Source: Candidatus Saccharimonadota bacterium (GTDB taxonomy: Bacteria > Patescibacteriota > Gracilibacteria > BD1-5 > UBA6164). From it: DNA of 32,000 nt. Under the pieces are notes generated by a model. The model saw only the letters and a list, made by a program, of their open reading frames with translations, was not told the DNA's origin and did not search any database. The translations under genes and the position numbers were made by a program. The stretch is taken from NCBI GenBank assembly GCA_004563595.2, contig CP042461.1:750001-782000 (forward strand). The letters run 5' to 3'. The first letter of the stretch is position 1. Each line of letters begins with the position of its first letter. This document shows positions 8,006-25,106 of the stretch, piece after piece.

Positions 8006-10681
8006 CTAACTTAACTTCCCTAATTTATCAATTAATTTTGATAACTTATCTTTTGCTTGTTCTTTTTTCTCCATTTCTGCTCTTACGAGTTTTTCGGGAG
8101 CTTTATTCACAAAAGCCTCATTTAATAATTTCTTATCTAAAATAGCTATATATTCTTTTGTATCAGTTATTTGCTCTTTGAGTCTTTCAGTTTCTTTTCC
8201 AATATCAAGTGCATTTGCAGTATCTATAAATACTTCCACTCATGCTTTAATAACTCAATATACTAGATTATCATCAGTTGGCTTCACACTCACAAGACTA
8301 ATATCTTCAGCTTTTACAATTCATCAAATAAGTTCTAAAACTTCTGATATAATATCTGCATTTTTATTTTTTGCATATATTTGTAATCCTATAGTCTTAT
8401 TTGGCATAATCTTATTATCAGCTCTCAGACTTCTAATCTCTCTTATTATATCCATAATAAGTTTCTTTTCTTTTTCTATTTCTTCTGATCTTGGAAGTTT
8501 AACTTCTCATAATATTACTTCTATTAAATCTCACTCAAATCATAATTTGTTGTAGATCTCTGTAGAAACAAAAGGAATATATGGATGCCATAATTTTAGA
8601 AGAGTATTTATCACATATGTAATAACTTCTTGTCAAAATTTTGATGTTTCTTTTGTAAGTTTAAATTCTTCAATGTAATAATCACAGAATTCATGTTTTG
8701 TAAATGCCTGTAATTCAAGACCTCATTCAGAAAAATTATTTTCTTCCATAGATTTTGTAACCAGATCGGAAACATATCTCACTCTGCTTAATATCCATTT
8801 TTCATGGAACATAAGAGATTCATAATTTTCTAATAAATTATTCTCTATATCGGATATACTACTCTCTTTTAAACTATCATCTAAATTTACAGATACAAAT
8901 CTAGAAGCATTCCAAAGCTTATTAATAAAGATCATGTTATTTTCAACATTCACCTCATCAAATTTCAAATCATTTCAAGGTGTATTTCAAATACTTAAAG
9001 CTAGTCTTAAAGCATCTGTACCATATTTTTCAATCATATCAAGTGGGTTTATTCCATTCCCAGCAGATTTACTCATTTTTGCACCATGTTTATCTCTTAC
9101 CATTCAGTGAAGATATATTTTTTCAAATGGAGTTTGACCTGTGAACTCATATCAGAACAATAACATTCTAATAACCCAGAAGAAAATAATATCATGTCCT
9201 GTTTCAAGTATCTGAGCTGGGTAAAACTCTTTTACAAGATCTGGCTGCTCTTCCCCCCACATATTATAATCAAGCACTGAAAATGGCCATAATCATGAAG
9301 AAAACCACGTATCAAGAACATCAGTATCTCTTGTAAGAACTACTTCTTTTCAATAATGAGACTTTGCAAGTTCATAAGCTTCCTCTTCGGTTTCAGTACA
9401 AAATGGATGTCCATCTTCTCCATACCAAACTGGGATTTGATGTCCCCACCATAACTGTCTTGATATACACCAATCTCTGAGATTAAAAATCCAATCTTCA
9501 AAAACTTTATTAAATCTTTTTGGAATAATTTCAAATTCTTTTGCTTTGTATCATTTCACTACTTTTTTAACAAGGGGATCAACTTTTACAAACCATTGAG
9601 AAGATATGATAGTTTCAACTTTTGCACCTGATCTTTCACAATATCATACTTTAGAAACATGATCCTCAACTTTGATCAAATTTCATTTTGCCTTTAAAAG
9701 TTCTACAATATTAGATCTTGCTGTTATATAATCTTGTCATTCAAAAATTCAAGCTATATTTGTCATTTTTCCATCTTTTCACAGTACTACAATATCAAGT
9801 GGAAGATCATGCCTTTTCCCAACTTCGAAATCACTTGGGTCATGTGCAGGAGTAATTTTGACTGCCCCTGTTCAAAAATCCATATCTACCATTTCATCAG
9901 CAATAATTGGAATTTCTTTGTTTACTATAGGAAGTATTAATTTTTTTCAATTTTTTAGTAACTTTTTATATCTCTTATCTTTAGGATGAACTGCAACTGC
10001 TACATCTCAGAGAAGAGTCTCTGGTCTCGTAGTTGCAACTACTACTTCATTATCACTCCCTGCAACGAAATAAGTAATATGGTATAATTTCCCTTTTTCT
10101 TCTTTGTATACTACCTCTTGATCAGATAATACGGTATTGAGTGCTGGAGAATAATTTACCATATATTCTCATTTATAGATAAGGTCTTTGTGATATAAAT
10201 CAACAAAGGCTTTATTTACTCTTTTATTTAAATCCGCATCAAGTGTAAATCTTTCTTTAGACCAATCACACGATGCCCCCATTTTTTTAAATTGATCAGT
10301 GATGATATTAGCATGAGTTTCTTTCCAATCCCAGCATTCTTTTAAAAAGTCTTTTCTTCAAAGATCAAATTTTGTTTTTCACTCTTTCGCAAGTTTTTCT
10401 TCTACCTTTGCTTGAGTTGCAATTCATGCATGATCAGTTCAAGGCACCCATAAAGTAGCATCTCACTTCATTCTATGATACCTAGTCATGATATCCTCAA
10501 GAGTACAAGTTAATGCATGTCACAAATGTAATACTCATGTTACATTTGGTGGTGGAATAGGAATATAAAATTGTTCCCCTGTAAGACTTTTTCTCGGTTT
10601 AAACTTTCCTTCCTGTTCCCATTTTTGATATAATGATTCTTCAAAACTCGATGGTGAATATTTTTTTGGAAACTCTGACAT
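8006..10681 (-). CDS. valS: Valine--tRNA ligase, 891 aa
   Basis: All triplets from 8006 to 10681 were scanned: open under table 25, ending at TAG 8006-8008. HIGH motif PPPNVTGVLHLGHAL (its Gly is TGA at 10520-10522), KMSKS motif [22 protein letters not shown], and the C-terminal coiled coil typical of ValRS. Confidence 0.95.
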
Positions 10682-15136: not shown

Positions 15137-15170
15137 AAAAGTCTTATGGTTTTATCCATAAGACTTTTTT
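15135..15170. terminator. Bidirectional intrinsic terminator shared by dus (+) and island ORF A (-)
   Basis: A6, then GTCTTATGG-TTTTAT-CCATAAGAC, then T6. Stem 15141-15149 / 15156-15164. Confidence 0.75.
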
Positions 15171-15175
15171 ATACC

Positions 15176-15550
15176 TCATTTTTGACATTCATAATGATCT
15201 ATGTTCTGTAACATAGATCGATCATATTTTTCTAATTCAGATAATACCTCTAATTCATTACCATTAAAATCAGTATAAAATTCTCTTATTAATGCACTTA
15301 TTGCTTCTTTGCTATCGCTAAGTTGCCCATTACCTAATAGATTAGTTAACTCATCCATATCCATCGACAGTATAAGATTACGAGTATATAAGCCTTTGGA
15401 GGCAGGATATCTCAACGTAACATTTTCACAAGATGGGCACCGATGTGTGTATCCGGTGTAAAAAGCAATTTTTTCTAATGTTTCTCTCCTTTTTTCGATT
15501 AGAACAGGTATTTGACATGTGATAAGGTCATCATTGACTTTAGCGTTCAT
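15176..15550 (-). CDS. Hypothetical 124-aa CPxC protein (island ORF A). Under table 25 it would read through TGA 15176-15178 to TAA 15152-15154, giving 132 aa.
   Basis: ATG 15548-15550 is preceded by AGGAG with a 7-nt gap. Cysteines at C12, C38-P-S-C41 and C122. No internal TGA. The standard-code stop TGA lies 11 nt upstream of the terminator stem. Confidence 0.6.
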   Translation of the reverse strand: MNAKVNDDLITCQIPVLIEKRRETLEKIAFYTGYTHRCPSCENVTLRYPASKGLYTRNLILSMDMDELTNLLGNGQLSDSKEAISALIREFYTDFNGNELEVLSELEKYDRSMLQNIDHYECQK

Positions 15551-15600
15551 ATAAAACTCCTAGAATAGAATACTCAATAAAGGGAATAAACTTGCGGAGT

Positions 15601-15628
15601 ACTATAAGTAATTTAAAAGATAATGCAA
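15601..15628 (-). promoter_or_regulatory. Sigma70-type promoter of ORF A
   Basis: On the - strand: TTGCAT (15623-15628), 16-nt spacer, TATAGT (15601-15606). The CTTATAGTACTC block matches CTTATAATACTC upstream of ORF B. Confidence 0.5.
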
Positions 15629-15631
15629 GAA

Positions 15632-15674
15632 GGAATTAAAAAAAGATATCAAAACGATATCTCTTCTTAATTCC
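15632..15674 (-). terminator. Long hairpin downstream of ORF B
   Basis: 19-nt arms (15632-15650 / 15656-15674) with a 5-nt loop. The two arm mismatches become G-U pairs only in the - strand RNA, which fits an RNA element for ORF B. The trailing U-tract is weak. Confidence 0.5.
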
Positions 15675-15691
15675 CTCATTTTTTGATTCAC

Positions 15692-16066
15692 TTAATTACT
15701 TACTTTAAGAGGTTCAACTTTTACTAGTGTTAGAAGTTGATTAAAGATGTCTTCAATCAATTCACTATCTCCTTTATAGGCACTAAGTAAATCGCTTGAT
15801 CTCATAATATCTCTACGTTTTTCTTCATGATTCACACCATTCACAAAGTACAAGTTCTCTGAATGATAACATCTTTTTATATAATGAACCTGAAATGCTG
15901 CACCTATCATCATTTTTAACAATTTTTCATTACATGGAATATCATGTGATAAATGTGTTGTAGAACAATCGGGGCATTCCTCAATATAGATAGAAAAAAA
16001 TGTTTCTCCTGTTATTATTCCCTCCATTTTCCCGCATAAATCTGTTTTATTGCTTGCTTTGATCAT
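15692..16066 (-). CDS. Hypothetical 124-aa CPxC protein (island ORF B), a probable divergent paralogue of ORF A
   Basis: ATG 16064-16066 is preceded by GGAGG with a 5-nt gap; stop TAA 15692-15694. Cysteines at C11, C31-P-D-C34, C45 and C66. Same length as ORF A, with the same DL.C ... CP.C layout and the same promoter architecture. Confidence 0.6.
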   Translation of the reverse strand: MIKASNKTDLCGKMEGIITGETFFSIYIEECPDCSTTHLSHDIPCNEKLLKMMIGAAFQVHYIKRCYHSENLYFVNGVNHEEKRRDIMRSSDLLSAYKGDSELIEDIFNQLLTLVKVEPLKVSN

Positions 16067-16113
16067 AAAGCCTCCAAAAGATATATAACAAAAGGAAAAT
16101 ATCCTTATAGAGT

Positions 16114-16141
16114 ATTATAAGGTTTTTTTAAAACAATACAA
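16114..16141 (-). promoter_or_regulatory. Sigma70-type promoter of ORF B
   Basis: On the - strand: TTGTAT (16136-16141), 16-nt spacer, TATAAT (16114-16119). Confidence 0.5.
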
Positions 16142-16157
16142 TATAAAATATCAAAAG

Positions 16158-16188
16158 AAAACCCTAGCAATATATTGCTAGGGTTTTT
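16158..16188 (-). terminator. Intrinsic terminator of the lipoprotein gene
   Basis: The - strand RNA reads AAAAACCCUAGCAAUAUAUUGCUAGGGUUUUCUUUU. Confidence 0.75.
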
Positions 16189-16195
16189 ATGGTTT

Positions 16196-17443
16196 TTAGT
16201 TAGCTCCACAACCAACTTGAGTCAAACAAGGGTTATCAATGATAGTAACATTGTGTGAAAAACCTTGATGGGGTGAAATCACATAAATCTTATCATTTAG
16301 AGTAAACAATCTCTGAATCTTATCATCAAGGATAATAGAACTAATTAATGTATAATCTAATAGATTATACGTGTTAATAGAATTATCATACCTTCCTACA
16401 TGCATAACATTATTTGTTATATCAAATGTGAGGTCGCTAATTCCTACCTCAGATAATTGAGAAACATGAGTCATGTCAGATGAGAGGAACATATCTCCAC
16501 CTCTAACAATAACATTTTCACCATTTGGAGTTACCCAAACTTTACCATTTATTGGGTATGTGCCATGATAAGGTAGTTTTCCTAAACTTTGAATATCATT
16601 TCCTATAATAGAAAATTTTTCAAAAGCTGATGGCGAAACATCACTATTAGCAGCAAATACAGTATCCTTAAATGGATGTACAGTTAAACGTGATCTCTGA
16701 CGAATAAAACCTTCGCTTAGAAGCCCACCCCACTCTGAATCATACATAGATATTTTTGTCCATTGACCTGAACCCGATGATATTATTAAATTACCATTCC
16801 CGTTCACAACAATATCATATGGGTCAATATCTACATGCAAAGTATCTATAAGCTCTTGAGTATCACGATCAATAACTGCAATAAAGCCTTCCTGTTGAAG
16901 CTCAGACCATTGATTATTATGTTCTTGCGTTAATAAGGAAACATATAACTCATTTCCATCATCTGAAATAGCCATACTTTCTGGCATAAGTGTGTCAAAA
17001 GTTATAGTATTTATTTTTTGACCTGTAAATGCATCCATAAATAATAACTTACTACTCTTCTTATCAGTAGCATATATTATTGAACGTTTTTTATCATAAA
17101 GCATATCTCCAGCAGGATCATCCATAGGAATATGGAATGCTATAATCTCACAACTAATTGTAACATCAGTTACATTAGCAGTTGGAAAGACCCCTGTATT
17201 ATTCTCAATTAAACAACTATAATTTTCTGGAGCTGATTTAATTGAAACCTCATACGGCTTGCCTGGTAGGTAATTCTTGCTGAAAGAAAAATCTGTAGCA
17301 GATGACAATGTTAATGTCTCATTTCCATCTGATATTTCAATATCCCCTTTCAATCCAGTTATTGTACCACTCAGGTTACAACCAGAAAGAATTCCCAACA
17401 AAACAACTAACAAGCTTAATTTGCAAAACTTTAACATGTACAA
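16196..17443 (-). CDS. Lipoprotein, 415 aa: a lipobox, an Ig-like domain, then a YVTN/lactonase-type beta-propeller
   Basis: Intact ORF in the standard code. AAGGAG lies 8 nt before the ATG. Signal plus lipobox MYMLKFCKLSLLVVLLGILSGC. The N-terminal domain GTITGLKGDIEISDGNETLTLSS..FSFSKNYLPGKPYEVSIKSAPENYSCLIENNTG....NVTDVTISC is a pattern I recall from proteobacterial lipoproteins. Propeller-like repeats include DGNELYVSL, NGNGNLIISSG and PNGENVIVRGG. It has 31 Gly codons, none TGA. Confidence 0.75.
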   Translation of the reverse strand: MYMLKFCKLSLLVVLLGILSGCNLSGTITGLKGDIEISDGNETLTLSSATDFSFSKNYLPGKPYEVSIKSAPENYSCLIENNTGVFPTANVTDVTISCEIIAFHIPMDDPAGDMLYDKKRSIIYATDKKSSKLLFMDAFTGQKINTITFDTLMPESMAISDDGNELYVSLLTQEHNNQWSELQQEGFIAVIDRDTQELIDTLHVDIDPYDIVVNGNGNLIISSGSGQWTKISMYDSEWGGLLSEGFIRQRSRLTVHPFKDTVFAANSDVSPSAFEKFSIIGNDIQSLGKLPYHGTYPINGKVWVTPNGENVIVRGGDMFLSSDMTHVSQLSEVGISDLTFDITNNVMHVGRYDNSINTYNLLDYTLISSIILDDKIQRLFTLNDKIYVISPHQGFSHNVTIIDNPCLTQVGCGAN

Positions 17444-23207: not shown

Positions 23208-24596
23208 TTATTTTAATCTTTCTCTTACAAAATTATTTAAATCTTTTATATCTACTAATTCTTGTTGCATACTATCTCTAAATCTAATAGTAACTTTTCA
23301 GTTTTCATAATTTTCAGTATCAACAGTAACACAAAATGGAGTTCAAATTTCATCCATTCTTGCGTATCTTTTCCCAATTGAAGCAACTTCATCATATTCA
23401 CATATGAAATCTTCTGAGAGTTGAGCAAAAACTTCTTTTGCCAAATGTCCTATTTTTTTCACAACAGGTAGTACTCATACTTTGATTGGAGCAACTTTTG
23501 GAGCAAACTTTAGGTATGTTCTATTATTTTCTTCATCAACAGTATATGCATCACATAATGCAGCAAGTACAATTCTTCATAACCCCATAGCTGGTTCGAT
23601 TACATAAGGTATGAATTTCTTATTATTAATAGGGTCAAAGTAACTCATATCTTGTTTAGAATGAGTCATATGAGCCTTTAAATCATAATCAGTTCTATTT
23701 GCTAGAGTTTCTATTTCTCACCAACCAAAAGGATATTGATATTCGAAATCTCATGCTTCTTTTGAATAATGTGGAAGCTCATCTTTTTTAATAGGAACAA
23801 AACGAACATTTTCTTTTTTTAATCAAATGATATCTGTGAAATACCTTTGTGAATTATCTTTCCAAACTTGAAAATATTCATCATCTTCTCATGGAGTCAC
23901 GAAAAATTCTATTTCCATTTGTTCAAATTCTCTCGTTCTAAAAATAAAATTACCTGGTGTGATTTCATTTCTGAATGATTTCCCTGCTTGAGCAATCCCA
24001 AATGGGAGTTTCCTTCTTGAGCTTCTGAGTACATTTGGGAAATCTACAAATTGTCCTTGGGCAGTTTCTGGTCTTAAATATGCTGCTGATGAACTATCAT
24101 CAGTTACTCATAGATGAGTTTTTAACATCAGATTAAAGCGACGAATTTCAGTAAAATTTGTCTCTTTACAATCAGGACACTTGATTTTCTCATCTTGAAT
24201 ATATTTTTCTAAGACTTCTCAAGGAGTTTTATCACCAGCATATCACTCTGGCTCATTTGCTCATGTGTCTAAAATATGATTGTCGATAATCTTGTCTGCT
24301 CTCCATCTTGCTTTACATGATTTACAATCCATAAGTGGGTCAGAAAAACCTCATACATGTCCTGATGCTTCCCAAACTTTCGGATTCATTATAAGAGCGC
24401 AATCAATCAACATCACATCTGGTCTTTTTTGAATAAATTCTTTCATCCATAAAAACTTCACATTTTCTTTTAGCAATGAACCATATGGTCCATAGTCCCA
24501 AGAGTTTGCTAATCATCCATAAATTTCAGATCATGCATATACAAATCATCTATTTTGAGCAAGATTCACAATATTTTTCATAGTTACTTGTGTCAT
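23208..24596 (-). CDS. glyQS: Glycine--tRNA ligase, class II homodimeric GlyQS type, 462 aa
   Basis: All triplets were scanned: open under table 25, ending at TAA 23208-23210. Motifs [73 protein letters not shown] and [18 protein letters not shown]. It contains 16 in-frame TGA codons. Confidence 0.93.
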
Positions 24597-24790
24597 ACTT
24601 TGATTTTAAAAAATAATTTTTCTACAAAAGAAAAACCCCAAAGGCTTACTATTGTATTGCCTTTGGGGTCCTTTGATAAGTATAGGACGGTTCCACCCAA
24701 ATTCTCTTTATTTTCATAAAAAGCACTTTTATAACTTAAATATATCTTATTAGTTTCCAAACTAATGTTAAAACAATATATTTTTATTAA
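24597..24790 (-). promoter_or_regulatory. T-box riboswitch leader of glyQS (transcription attenuation type) with an unusually short Stem I
   Basis: - strand RNA elements: T-box core AAUUUGGGUGGAACCGUCC (24685-24703). Antiterminator pairing UUUGGG/CCCAAA and GUCC/GGAC around a UGGAACC bulge. A competing terminator ACCCCAAAGGC-N13-GCCUUUGGGGU plus U5 (24635-24669). Stem III CUUUUUAU-GAAA-AUAAAGAG (24704-24723). Only about a 46-nt Stem I candidate (24738-24783). Confidence 0.8.
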
Positions 24791-24794
24791 CTAC

Positions 24795-24822
24795 ATTCTA
24801 TAATTTTCAATAATTATGTCAA
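24795..24822 (-). promoter_or_regulatory. Sigma70-type promoter of the glyQS leader
   Basis: On the - strand: TTGACA (24817-24822), 16-nt spacer, TAGAAT (24795-24800). Confidence 0.55.
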
Positions 24823-24836
24823 TACTACTATCAAGA

Positions 24837-25106
24837 TTATTTTTGTATTCTCATACTTTCTTTATGTATCTTTTCCCATAAATCAAGAATGAAGTCTCTT
24901 TCTAATCATCTTTCATCAGCTTCTTCAAATAACATTGTTAGCAGACTATCCCATCTCTCTTCTTGTAAAATAGGCATATCAGTTTCTTTCTTAATCTTTC
25001 AAATTTCTTTTGATATTCAAAATCTTCTTGATAATAAATATACTATTTCTAGGTCGATAGTATCGACTTGATCTCTATAATGCTGTAATAGTTCGTGGTG
25101 TTCCAT
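24837..25106 (-). CDS. Chorismate mutase, AroQ class, 89 aa
   Basis: MEHHELLQHYRDQVDTIDLEIVYLLSRRFGISKEIGKIKK....ILQEERWDSLL fits the AroQ pattern (R..ID.ID..I..LL..R......IG..K). Open under table 25, ending at TAA 24837-24839. Confidence 0.6.

Follow-up and report, generated by a model that had tools for sequence, protein, structure and literature searches.

The window (the whole 32,000-nucleotide stretch of DNA that we analysed) has a G+C content of 28.5% and is readable only when UGA is taken as a sense codon; with translation table 25, long genes are found across it. Among them is glyS, which codes for a glycine--tRNA ligase (GlyRS) of the dimeric type. Its product scores 615 bits with NF003211 (cut-off 312), also matches TIGR00389, and shows 100% identity to GlyRS from Candidatus Gracilibacteria bacterium 28_42_T64, an organism with a closed genome of 28.87% G+C, code 25, 33 tRNA genes and no prfB, described in a paper that makes no mention of riboswitches (PMC6851277). 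Of the 625 glycine codons in the window genes, 344 (55%) are UGA, followed by GGA (120), GGU (91), GGG (62) and GGC (8), and the glyS genes of close relatives have no GGC codon at all. Because 24837 is the last position of the chorismate mutase gene upstream, the leader of glyS is confined to at most 24597-24836. Within it, positions 24626-24822 of the minus strand carry a sigma-70-type promoter, a hairpin, Stem III, an antiterminator and an overlapping terminator, all of which are present, as listed here in the direction of transcription:

24837-25106, minus strand: type II chorismate mutase, the upstream gene (gene call with table 25, family match)
24817-24822, minus strand: -35 box TTGACA (promoter scan; 11 of 12 matches together with the -10 box, 16-nt spacer)
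24795-24800, minus strand: -10 box TAGAAT (promoter scan; aligned with TAGACT in L202, the closest relative)
24776-24783, minus strand: 5' arm of the lower helix of Stem I, AAAUAUAU (RNAfold; relatives have a helix of different sequence in the same place)
24767-24775, minus strand: 5' side of the Stem I internal loop, UGUUUUAAC, at the position of a degenerated K-turn (homologous to UGU-GA-AA in L202)
24761-24766, minus strand: 5' arm of the upper helix of Stem I, AUUAGU (RNAfold, closing helices of relatives)
24755-24760, minus strand: apical loop UUGGAA, with GGA at 24758-24756 flanked by U (5') and A (3') (comparison with glyS and thrS leaders)
24749-24754, minus strand: 3' arm of the upper helix of Stem I, ACUAAU (RNAfold, relatives)
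24738-24748, minus strand: 3' side of the internal loop, AAG, then the 3' arm of the lower helix, AUAUAUUU (RNAfold; the homologous stretch of L202 is GUUGA-AGAU)
24724-24728, minus strand: AAGUG, the RRRNG motif 5' of Stem III (AAGUG, AAGCG, AAGAG or GAGUG in most relatives)
24702-24723, minus strand: Stem III, CUUUUUAU-GAAA-AUAAAGAG (24704-24723), then AA (fold; arms complementary across lineages)
24662-24701, minus strand: antiterminator, with helices A1 (UUUGGG/CCCAAA) and A2 (GUCCU/AGGAC) and bulge UGGAACC at 24695-24689 (model R1 match, covariation)
24626-24668, minus strand: intrinsic terminator, CCCCAAAGGC...GCCUUUGGGG plus UUUUUCUUUU (U5CU4) (RNAfold; the 5' arm overlaps the 3' strand of A1)
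23208-24596, minus strand: glyS, the regulated gene, dimeric-type glycine--tRNA ligase of 462 amino acids (NF003211, TIGR00389; 16 in-frame UGA codons for glycine)

An earlier reading of the bare letters (hereafter the original prediction) had proposed a T-box with a minimal Stem I at this place, and most of its anatomy is borne out. The promoter (TTGACA-16-TAGAAT) and the hairpin of ca. 46 nt are both there, and transcription would start at about 24788, judging from the promoter consensus. The hairpin runs from 24783 to 24738 in two tiers, AAAUAUAU/AUAUAUUU and AUUAGU(U)/(A)ACUAAU. Its apical loop had been drawn as a heptaloop, UUGGAAA, which was mistaken: it has six nucleotides, or only the four of a UGGA tetraloop should the U-A pair close, in which case GGA would sit in a tight turn. 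This GGA is the sole GGN between the -10 box and Stem III, in agreement with the earlier statement that the region holds a single glycine codon. Only 14 nt (AAGUUAUAAAAGUG, RRRNG included) separate the hairpin from Stem III. Further downstream, the T-box sequence AAUUUGGGUGGAACCGUC at 24703-24686 conforms to the consensus AANNNGGGUGGNACCGNG, comprising the 5' side of the antiterminator and the 7-nt bulge. The 5' arm of the terminator reuses the 3' strand of A1, making terminator and antiterminator mutually exclusive, with RNAfold energies of -22.7 kcal/mol for the former and -15.0 kcal/mol for the domain of Stem III plus antiterminator. The terminator had been given an 11-bp stem; it exists, its stem consisting of 10 strong pairs extended by A-U and G.U. 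What alternates with the antiterminator is a G+C-rich hairpin with a U-run behind it, at a distance of 30 nt from the start codon, and there is no sequestrator/anti-sequestrator of the ribosome binding site (RBS). The whole leader folds more stably than its own shuffles (z = -4.5).

Conservation of the 3' domain

Rfam 15 gave no match to the window at the gathering thresholds, and RF00230, the T-box family, gave none even at E<=10 over 601 bases. A match to the trpB motif (24.9 bits, E=0.37) is due to chance and merely aligns Stem III and the terminator. The gathering score of RF00230 is 93 bits; the relatives of the window score 25-48 bits, all below it, and canonical Firmicute glyS leaders that have no Stem II (L007, L011 and L021) reach only 58-76 bits with a full Stem I. 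The search with RF00230 that had been suggested as a check was therefore blank for the window itself, and informative through a relative, L152, as described below.

Comparison with homologous leaders was more rewarding. The core GGGUGGAACCG, followed by a terminator, lies upstream of the GlyRS gene in 6/6 of the closest loci (54-63% identity, Gracilibacteria and allies, from species-representative genomes), and the same core is common to the window, its Gracilibacteria relatives and the Firmicute T-boxes that RF00230 recognises (L007, L011, L021). All of L202-L209, with GlyRS 72-89% identical, have the discriminator domain. Metagenomes scanned with a degenerate T-box pattern added at least about 45 further leaders among the matches listed, although these matches also include many chance ones in high-GC coding DNA and the size of the family is not estimable from them. 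The window has AAGUG-Stem III-AA, that is, the RRRNG-Stem III-AA motif of the domain that senses aminoacylation (PMC7778990). Between lineages the arms of Stem III are unrelated in sequence while their complementarity is kept, the two outer pairs being 100% paired; the GAAA cap that had been noticed in the window is real there and is not conserved in relatives.

The A1 and A2 helices show compensatory changes across relatives. When the covariation analysis that the original prediction had called for was carried out, 94.1% of cells were paired in a 16-sequence alignment of relatives, against 81.5% in shuffles (0/500 as high), eight pairs had changes on both sides, and pairing fell to 59-64% if the partner was slid by one column. 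We then used a covariance model, R1, built from 16 relatives with the window left out. It covers the 3' domain only, because full-length MAFFT alignments misaligned Stem I, which was analysed by an anchored script instead. R1 matched the window at 24661-24728 with 58.4 bits (E=2e-13), the sole significant match in 32 kb. It is beyond reasonable doubt that the 3' half is a T-box discriminator domain, as first proposed, and the glyS leader element as a whole is almost certainly a T-box.

A two-tier hairpin with a conserved apical triplet

Each of the relatives has one two-tier hairpin between promoter and Stem III. U-GGN-(R/U) is found within the apical loop, which is 6-10 nt long, in 26/26 non-redundant glyS leaders, 46-79 nt upstream of GGGUGG; the triplet is GGA in 17, GGC in 7 and GGU in 2, and the base that follows it is a purine except in the Parcubacteria locus L080, which has U. 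The loops of L202-L209 read U-GGA-A, with the exception of U-GGU-A in L203. The helices that close these loops are widely divergent (AUUAGU, GUCAU, AGAAUAU, GCGCC, ACCGA, GGAAGGG, ACGAA, GGGG and others), with 4-6 pair types at every closing-pair position of the 26 leaders. Even so, 93.8% of the cells in the first five closing pairs are paired, against 38-50% in slid registers; the script picks the best register and biases the first figure upward, which the slid-register and shuffle controls offset in part. Of the shuffled leaders, 3.4% yield a UGGNR loop closed by 5 bp or more, and the combined probability is p = 2e-7 under a conservative position-wise null. Taken alone, the hairpin of the window is unexceptional in AT-rich DNA (p ~0.11 under the position-wise null), and hence the case for it as a real Stem I rests on the relatives.

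A sister class of leaders identifies what the triplet does. At least 16 leaders from the metagenome have the same 3' domain and UGGA bulge, and a first hairpin loop that reads C(U/C)ACCAA. Where the next gene was readable it was a threonine--tRNA ligase gene in at least 11 (called from tRNA_SAD, the class II core and the anticodon-binding domain, and by TIGR00418 at 629 bits). Within each class (GGN with glyS, ACC with thrS) variation is limited to the third codon base. As GGN accompanies GlyRS and ACC accompanies ThrRS while the bulge remains constant, we take the apical triplet for the specifier, and the GGA of the window very probably has this role. The minimal Stem I with an apical specifier, with a GGN conserved in homologous leaders, was what the original prediction had put forward, and it has held up well. 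Two other candidates were considered and rejected. Against the idea that the apical UGGA imitates the bulge, or gives NCCA a second place to bind, loops with UGGC and UGGU occur, always together with an unchanged UGGA bulge. UGA triplets elsewhere, such as AUGAAAAU in Stem III, might act as specifier; they are not conserved in other code-25 leaders.

What the hairpin lacks is equally consistent. That of the window ends in its 6-nt loop, with no AG bulge, no distal-loop motifs and no platform for binding the tRNA elbow, and no sequence is left for a platform between promoter and Stem III. In most leaders strong promoters (picked automatically, with several leaders read by hand) are found 24-45 nt upstream of the specifier U, so that there is room only for the 5' half of the hairpin. 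RF00230 makes sub-threshold matches in several relatives (L152 with 48 bits and E=6e-8, L163, L180, L089 and L179), and in its alignment of L152 the K-turn and base helix are in register, a 9-nt loop with GGA stands in for 75 positions of Stem I, and Stem II and the IIA/B pseudoknot are deleted. The relatives have a linker of 8-15 nt before RRRNG in place of Stem II and IIA/B, and the window likewise has no Stem II S-turn and no IIA/B pseudoknot. The absence of a distal platform, and of a longer Stem I upstream, had both been anticipated.

The absence of a K-turn had been claimed too, and this is correct for the window only, where UGUUUUAAC faces AAG and no tandem G.A pairs are formed. A K-turn that fits the consensus (C-stem, three-base bulge, GA facing GA) lies between the two tiers in many relatives, among them L202, the L006 group (UUC-UGU-GA-A...G-GA-GAA), L152/163, L169, L161/197, L148 and L080. 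The closest of them, L202 (GlyRS 89% identical), has UGU-GA-AA / GUU-GA-AG at the very loop where the window has UGUUUUAAC / AAG, and the upper helices of the two differ by compensatory changes. By this comparison the window carries a degenerated K-turn. The architecture reads as that of a glyQS-type T-box truncated just above the specifier, whose specifier loop has turned into an apical loop.

Which tRNA-Gly would be read, and the alternatives

GGA is the Watson-Crick complement of the anticodon UCC. Among genomes whose glyS contains TGA, GGA is found in the leaders of the window, L202, L205-L209, L001, L003, L004, L005, L152/163 and L192, and other triplets are GGU (L180) and GGC (L095, L148); UGA does not occur as specifier in any of the leaders from UGA-recoded genomes. 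Bacterial tRNA-Gly has U73. The features that mark tRNA(UCA) genes as glycine acceptors are G1:C72, C2:G71, G3:C70 and U73 (PMC8629427); because these genes also have U73, the UGGA bulge cannot tell the isoacceptors apart and only the specifier can. On these sequence grounds it is likely that the sensor does not monitor tRNA-Gly(UCA), as had been suggested at the outset. A single UCC isoacceptor for all GGN codons is plausible, given the 33 tRNA genes and the near-unused GGC. If UCC is the sole canonical isoacceptor, the GGU specifiers of L203, L180 and L193 imply a wobble or mismatch at the third position. No tRNA-Gly gene was found by ARAGORN in the window, L001-L006, 21 metagenome loci or L201-L209; a 91-nt call of 'tRNA-Asp(atc)' in L209 is probably spurious. 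Nor do PMC13092985, PMC4032931 and PMC6851277 contain a list of tRNA-Gly genes.

We consider it very likely that glyS is controlled by a transcription-attenuating T-box riboswitch with a truncated Stem I, in which GGA is read by canonical tRNA-Gly. Here we infer tRNA binding, the isoacceptor bound and the regulatory outcome from the anatomy found by computation. The nascent leader would fold into the short hairpin and its loop GGA would pair with the UCC anticodon of canonical tRNA-Gly; the conserved U and A bordering the triplet may lengthen the codon-anticodon helix or stack on it. Stem III and the antiterminator would check the 3' end of the tRNA, the UGGA of the bulge pairing with U73-C-C-A. 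An uncharged tRNA would stabilise the antiterminator and let RNA polymerase enter glyS; with charged tRNA the more stable terminator would form. In tRNA-Gly(UCA), A36 would be opposite the first G of the specifier, a G.A mismatch, and this tRNA would escape monitoring, the charging of canonical tRNA-Gly serving as a proxy for all GlyRS substrates. How the tRNA might be captured co-transcriptionally is more speculative: the flanking U and A could permit a loop-loop helix of UGGAA with UUCCA of the anticodon loop, or else the discriminator domain could cooperate, a protein cofactor could help or the polymerase could be slow. Several points speak against this mechanism: RF00230 finds nothing in the window, the hairpin of the window is statistically unremarkable by itself, a closed U-A pair would force GGA into the tight tetraloop, a GGU specifier would pair imperfectly with a lone UCC isoacceptor, and function with neither platform nor Stem II may need a cofactor, given what the literature says of these elements (PMC7583486).

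There are other ways to explain this leader. One would be that it is a canonical full-length T-box in which the true start lies further upstream and the GGA hairpin is a part of a long Stem I with platform. The start is placed only by the promoter consensus, and the -35 box is preceded by ca. 40 nt of non-coding DNA; however, the chorismate mutase gene sets the limit at 24837, most relatives have strong promoters directly before the hairpin, RF00230 itself aligns relatives with a 75-position deletion in Stem I, AG-bulge and distal-loop motifs are absent, and the full-length Firmicute leaders (L007, L011, L021) score 58-76 bits with a model that finds nothing in the window. We regard this explanation as extremely improbable.

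Another alternative accepts a working discriminator and sees in the hairpin a scaffold for folding or for the K-turn, the loop triplet not being read and specificity coming from the acceptor end alone. It would fit with the discriminator domain being the best-conserved part and with loops that vary from 6 to 10 nt, but hardly with a U-GGN-(R/U) kept in 26/26 loops on unrelated stems, in which only the third codon position varies, or with a triplet that becomes ACC exactly where the gene is thrS and the bulge is still UGGA; we judge it very unlikely. The leader might also be a decaying relic, i.e., a constitutively leaky terminator or a plain attenuator that has lost the elements for tRNA capture and no longer senses tRNA. 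The K-turn consensus is indeed lost in the window, and platform and Stem II, elements which the literature calls needed (PMC7583486), are absent. Against this, lineages that share only 47-63% identity in GlyRS have maintained the same reduced design, with compensatory changes, in code-25 and standard-code genomes alike, and a relic would not jointly retain specifier, RRRNG, UGGA bulge and the overlap of A1 with the terminator. We hold decay to be a highly improbable account.

Comparison with known T-boxes

A short Stem I is considered a feature of translational T-boxes, transcriptional ones generally needing a long Stem I with an elbow-binding motif, and truncated Stem I's scarcely bind tRNA without Stem II (PMC7583486). 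The class II search of TBDB was confined to Actinobacteria. We found no paper on a terminator-type T-box that lacks both elbow platform and Stem II, and full-text searches for T-box together with Gracilibacteria, Patescibacteria or candidate phyla radiation returned none either. We lean slightly towards the view that the truncated T-box works without compensating elements and is unreported. With similar, modest preference we see in it a natural minimal transcriptional T-box, devoid of elbow contact and Stem II, that is widespread in Patescibacteria/CPR and responds only to the canonical isoacceptor in the lineages where UGA is glycine. Under the latter reading the design spans glyS of Gracilibacteria and relatives, a Parcubacteria MAG and the thrS sister class.

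If this is true, a short codon hairpin, Stem III and an antiterminator would suffice to capture and proofread a tRNA during transcription. Conserved terminator-type leaders lacking both elements would define the smallest natural tRNA sensor, make it testable which contacts are essential (anticodon and 3' end alone, a protein cofactor, or slow transcription), and offer compact parts for engineered tRNA-responsive switches. The element also places T-boxes in the candidate phyla radiation, where the current Rfam threshold misses every member. Moreover, UGA has been reassigned and is now the commonest glycine codon, and the feedback sensor of the synthetase would still be tied to the canonical tRNA; because the sensor stayed with that tRNA, the new isoacceptor would be regulated by proxy only.

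The nearest known system is the glyQS/glyS T-box of Bacillus, Geobacillus and Oceanobacillus (RF00230), the simplest transcriptional T-box. It likewise precedes a gene for glycyl-tRNA synthetase, has no Stem II or IIA/B pseudoknot, and shares RRRNG-Stem III-AA, the UGGA bulge, the overlapping intrinsic terminator, a glycine specifier followed by a purine next to a helix and, with the relatives of the window, a K-turn below that helix. In contrast to the window, its Stem I continues beyond the specifier with an S-turn, an AG bulge, a distal loop and the platform of interdigitated T-loops that stacks on the tRNA elbow. Its specifier is in an internal loop, whereas that of the window is in an apical loop over a degenerated K-turn, and scores here fall far below the Rfam threshold.

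In Staphylococcus aureus, a single T-box likewise controls the sole GlyRS gene for several tRNA-Gly isoacceptors, but it has a full-length Stem I and responds to the GCC and UCC isoacceptors (PMC4574755). In the window the isoacceptor left unmonitored would be the UCA recoding tRNA, which differs opposite the first base of the specifier.

The ultrashort Stem I T-boxes of actinobacterial ileS genes (Mycobacterium, Nocardia; class II in TBDB), to which the window had been likened, also have the specifier in an apical loop and no elbow platform (PMC7583486, summarising Sherwood et al. 2015). The likeness holds for the apical-loop specifier only. Those T-boxes are translational, acting by RBS sequestration, and keep Stem II (PMC7583486), whereas the window has a terminator and neither Stem II nor the IIA/B pseudoknot, its relatives having an 8-15-nt linker instead; gene and phylum differ as well, ileS in Actinobacteria against glyS in Patescibacteria (CPR). 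An apical-loop specifier was previously known only from these translational ileS T-boxes, and its occurrence together with a terminator and without Stem II appears to be a new combination.

Loop triplets and Stem I in related glyS leaders

The apical-loop triplet of the minimal Stem I is not the same in every glyS leader that we compared. In L203 (9400-9500), a close relative whose GlyRS is 80% identical to that of the window and whose glyS contains no in-frame TGA, the triplet is GGU instead of GGA, and GGU was also found at two further loci, L180 and L193. A GGU specifier would need a wobble or a mismatch with the UCC anticodon, and likewise with GCC.

The same minimal glyS leader was also present in a MAG of the Parcubacteria group (L080:2090-2260), with a textbook K-turn (CAGC-GUU-GA-U / U-GA-GCUG) and a 4-bp helix (GGGG/CCCC) closed by the loop UUUGGCU, in which the triplet GGC is followed by U and not by a purine. 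Adjoining this leader on its upstream side is a sequence that resembles a tRNA and, on visual reading, would be a tRNA-Arg(CCG).

Gene context of the leaders

Gene order around glyS is partly kept among the Gracilibacteria relatives, the neighbours including a small type II chorismate mutase, a peptidase M48 and an SLH-domain protein.

Regions of the glyS neighbourhood compared
Window 24837-25106
L203:5612-5881
L206:1761-2039

In several relatives (L205, L208, L207, L192, L095 and L106) other genes separate the T-box from glyS. Across these relatives they comprise an asparaginase, a dCMP deaminase, a CYTH-domain protein, a DUF5655 protein with a Y1 transposase, and an unknown 288-aa ORF. From this arrangement it seems that either the leader controls a small operon or insertions took place.

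Regions concerned
L205:9314-10001
L208:9373-10001
L207:8121-10001

L168:3500-4600 likewise holds a minimal leader, with the apical loop AAUUUGGCA, the UGGA bulge and a terminator; here the gene on its 3' side encodes an APH-family phosphotransferase (PF01636, E=1e-8) and not an aminoacyl-tRNA synthetase. At L209:9652-9742, on the strand opposite to the T-box discriminator domain (9862-9921) and ca. 120 nt upstream of it, ARAGORN called a 91-nt "tRNA-Asp (atc)"; in AT-rich DNA the call is probably spurious.

Glycine codons at 15152-17437

The stretch considered lies on the minus strand of the window at 15152-17437.

16196-17437, minus strand, lipoprotein-like ORF of 413 aa: 31 GGN glycine codons, 0 TGA

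Its neighbours have 6 GGN and no TGA, and 7 GGN and one TGA. Over the whole window 55% of the codons for glycine are TGA (0.45^31, about 2e-11). By its codon usage, this stretch looks like an island recently acquired from a standard-code organism.

A sister class preceding thrS

Among the matches listed, terminator-type T-box leaders that form a sister class precede thrS in low- to mid-GC metagenome contigs (L085, L098, L110, L116, L122, L130, L138, L167, L176, L178 and L200; L097, L112, L114, L135 and L174 are given with them). In some of these loci a small ORF, GIY-YIG-like or other, lies between leader and thrS. C(U/C)ACCAA lies in the apical loop of the first hairpin 3' of the promoter, which makes this hairpin an ultrashort Stem I with the specifier ACC. 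Unlike the Gly class, the thrS class carries one to three extra hairpins between the first hairpin and Stem III.
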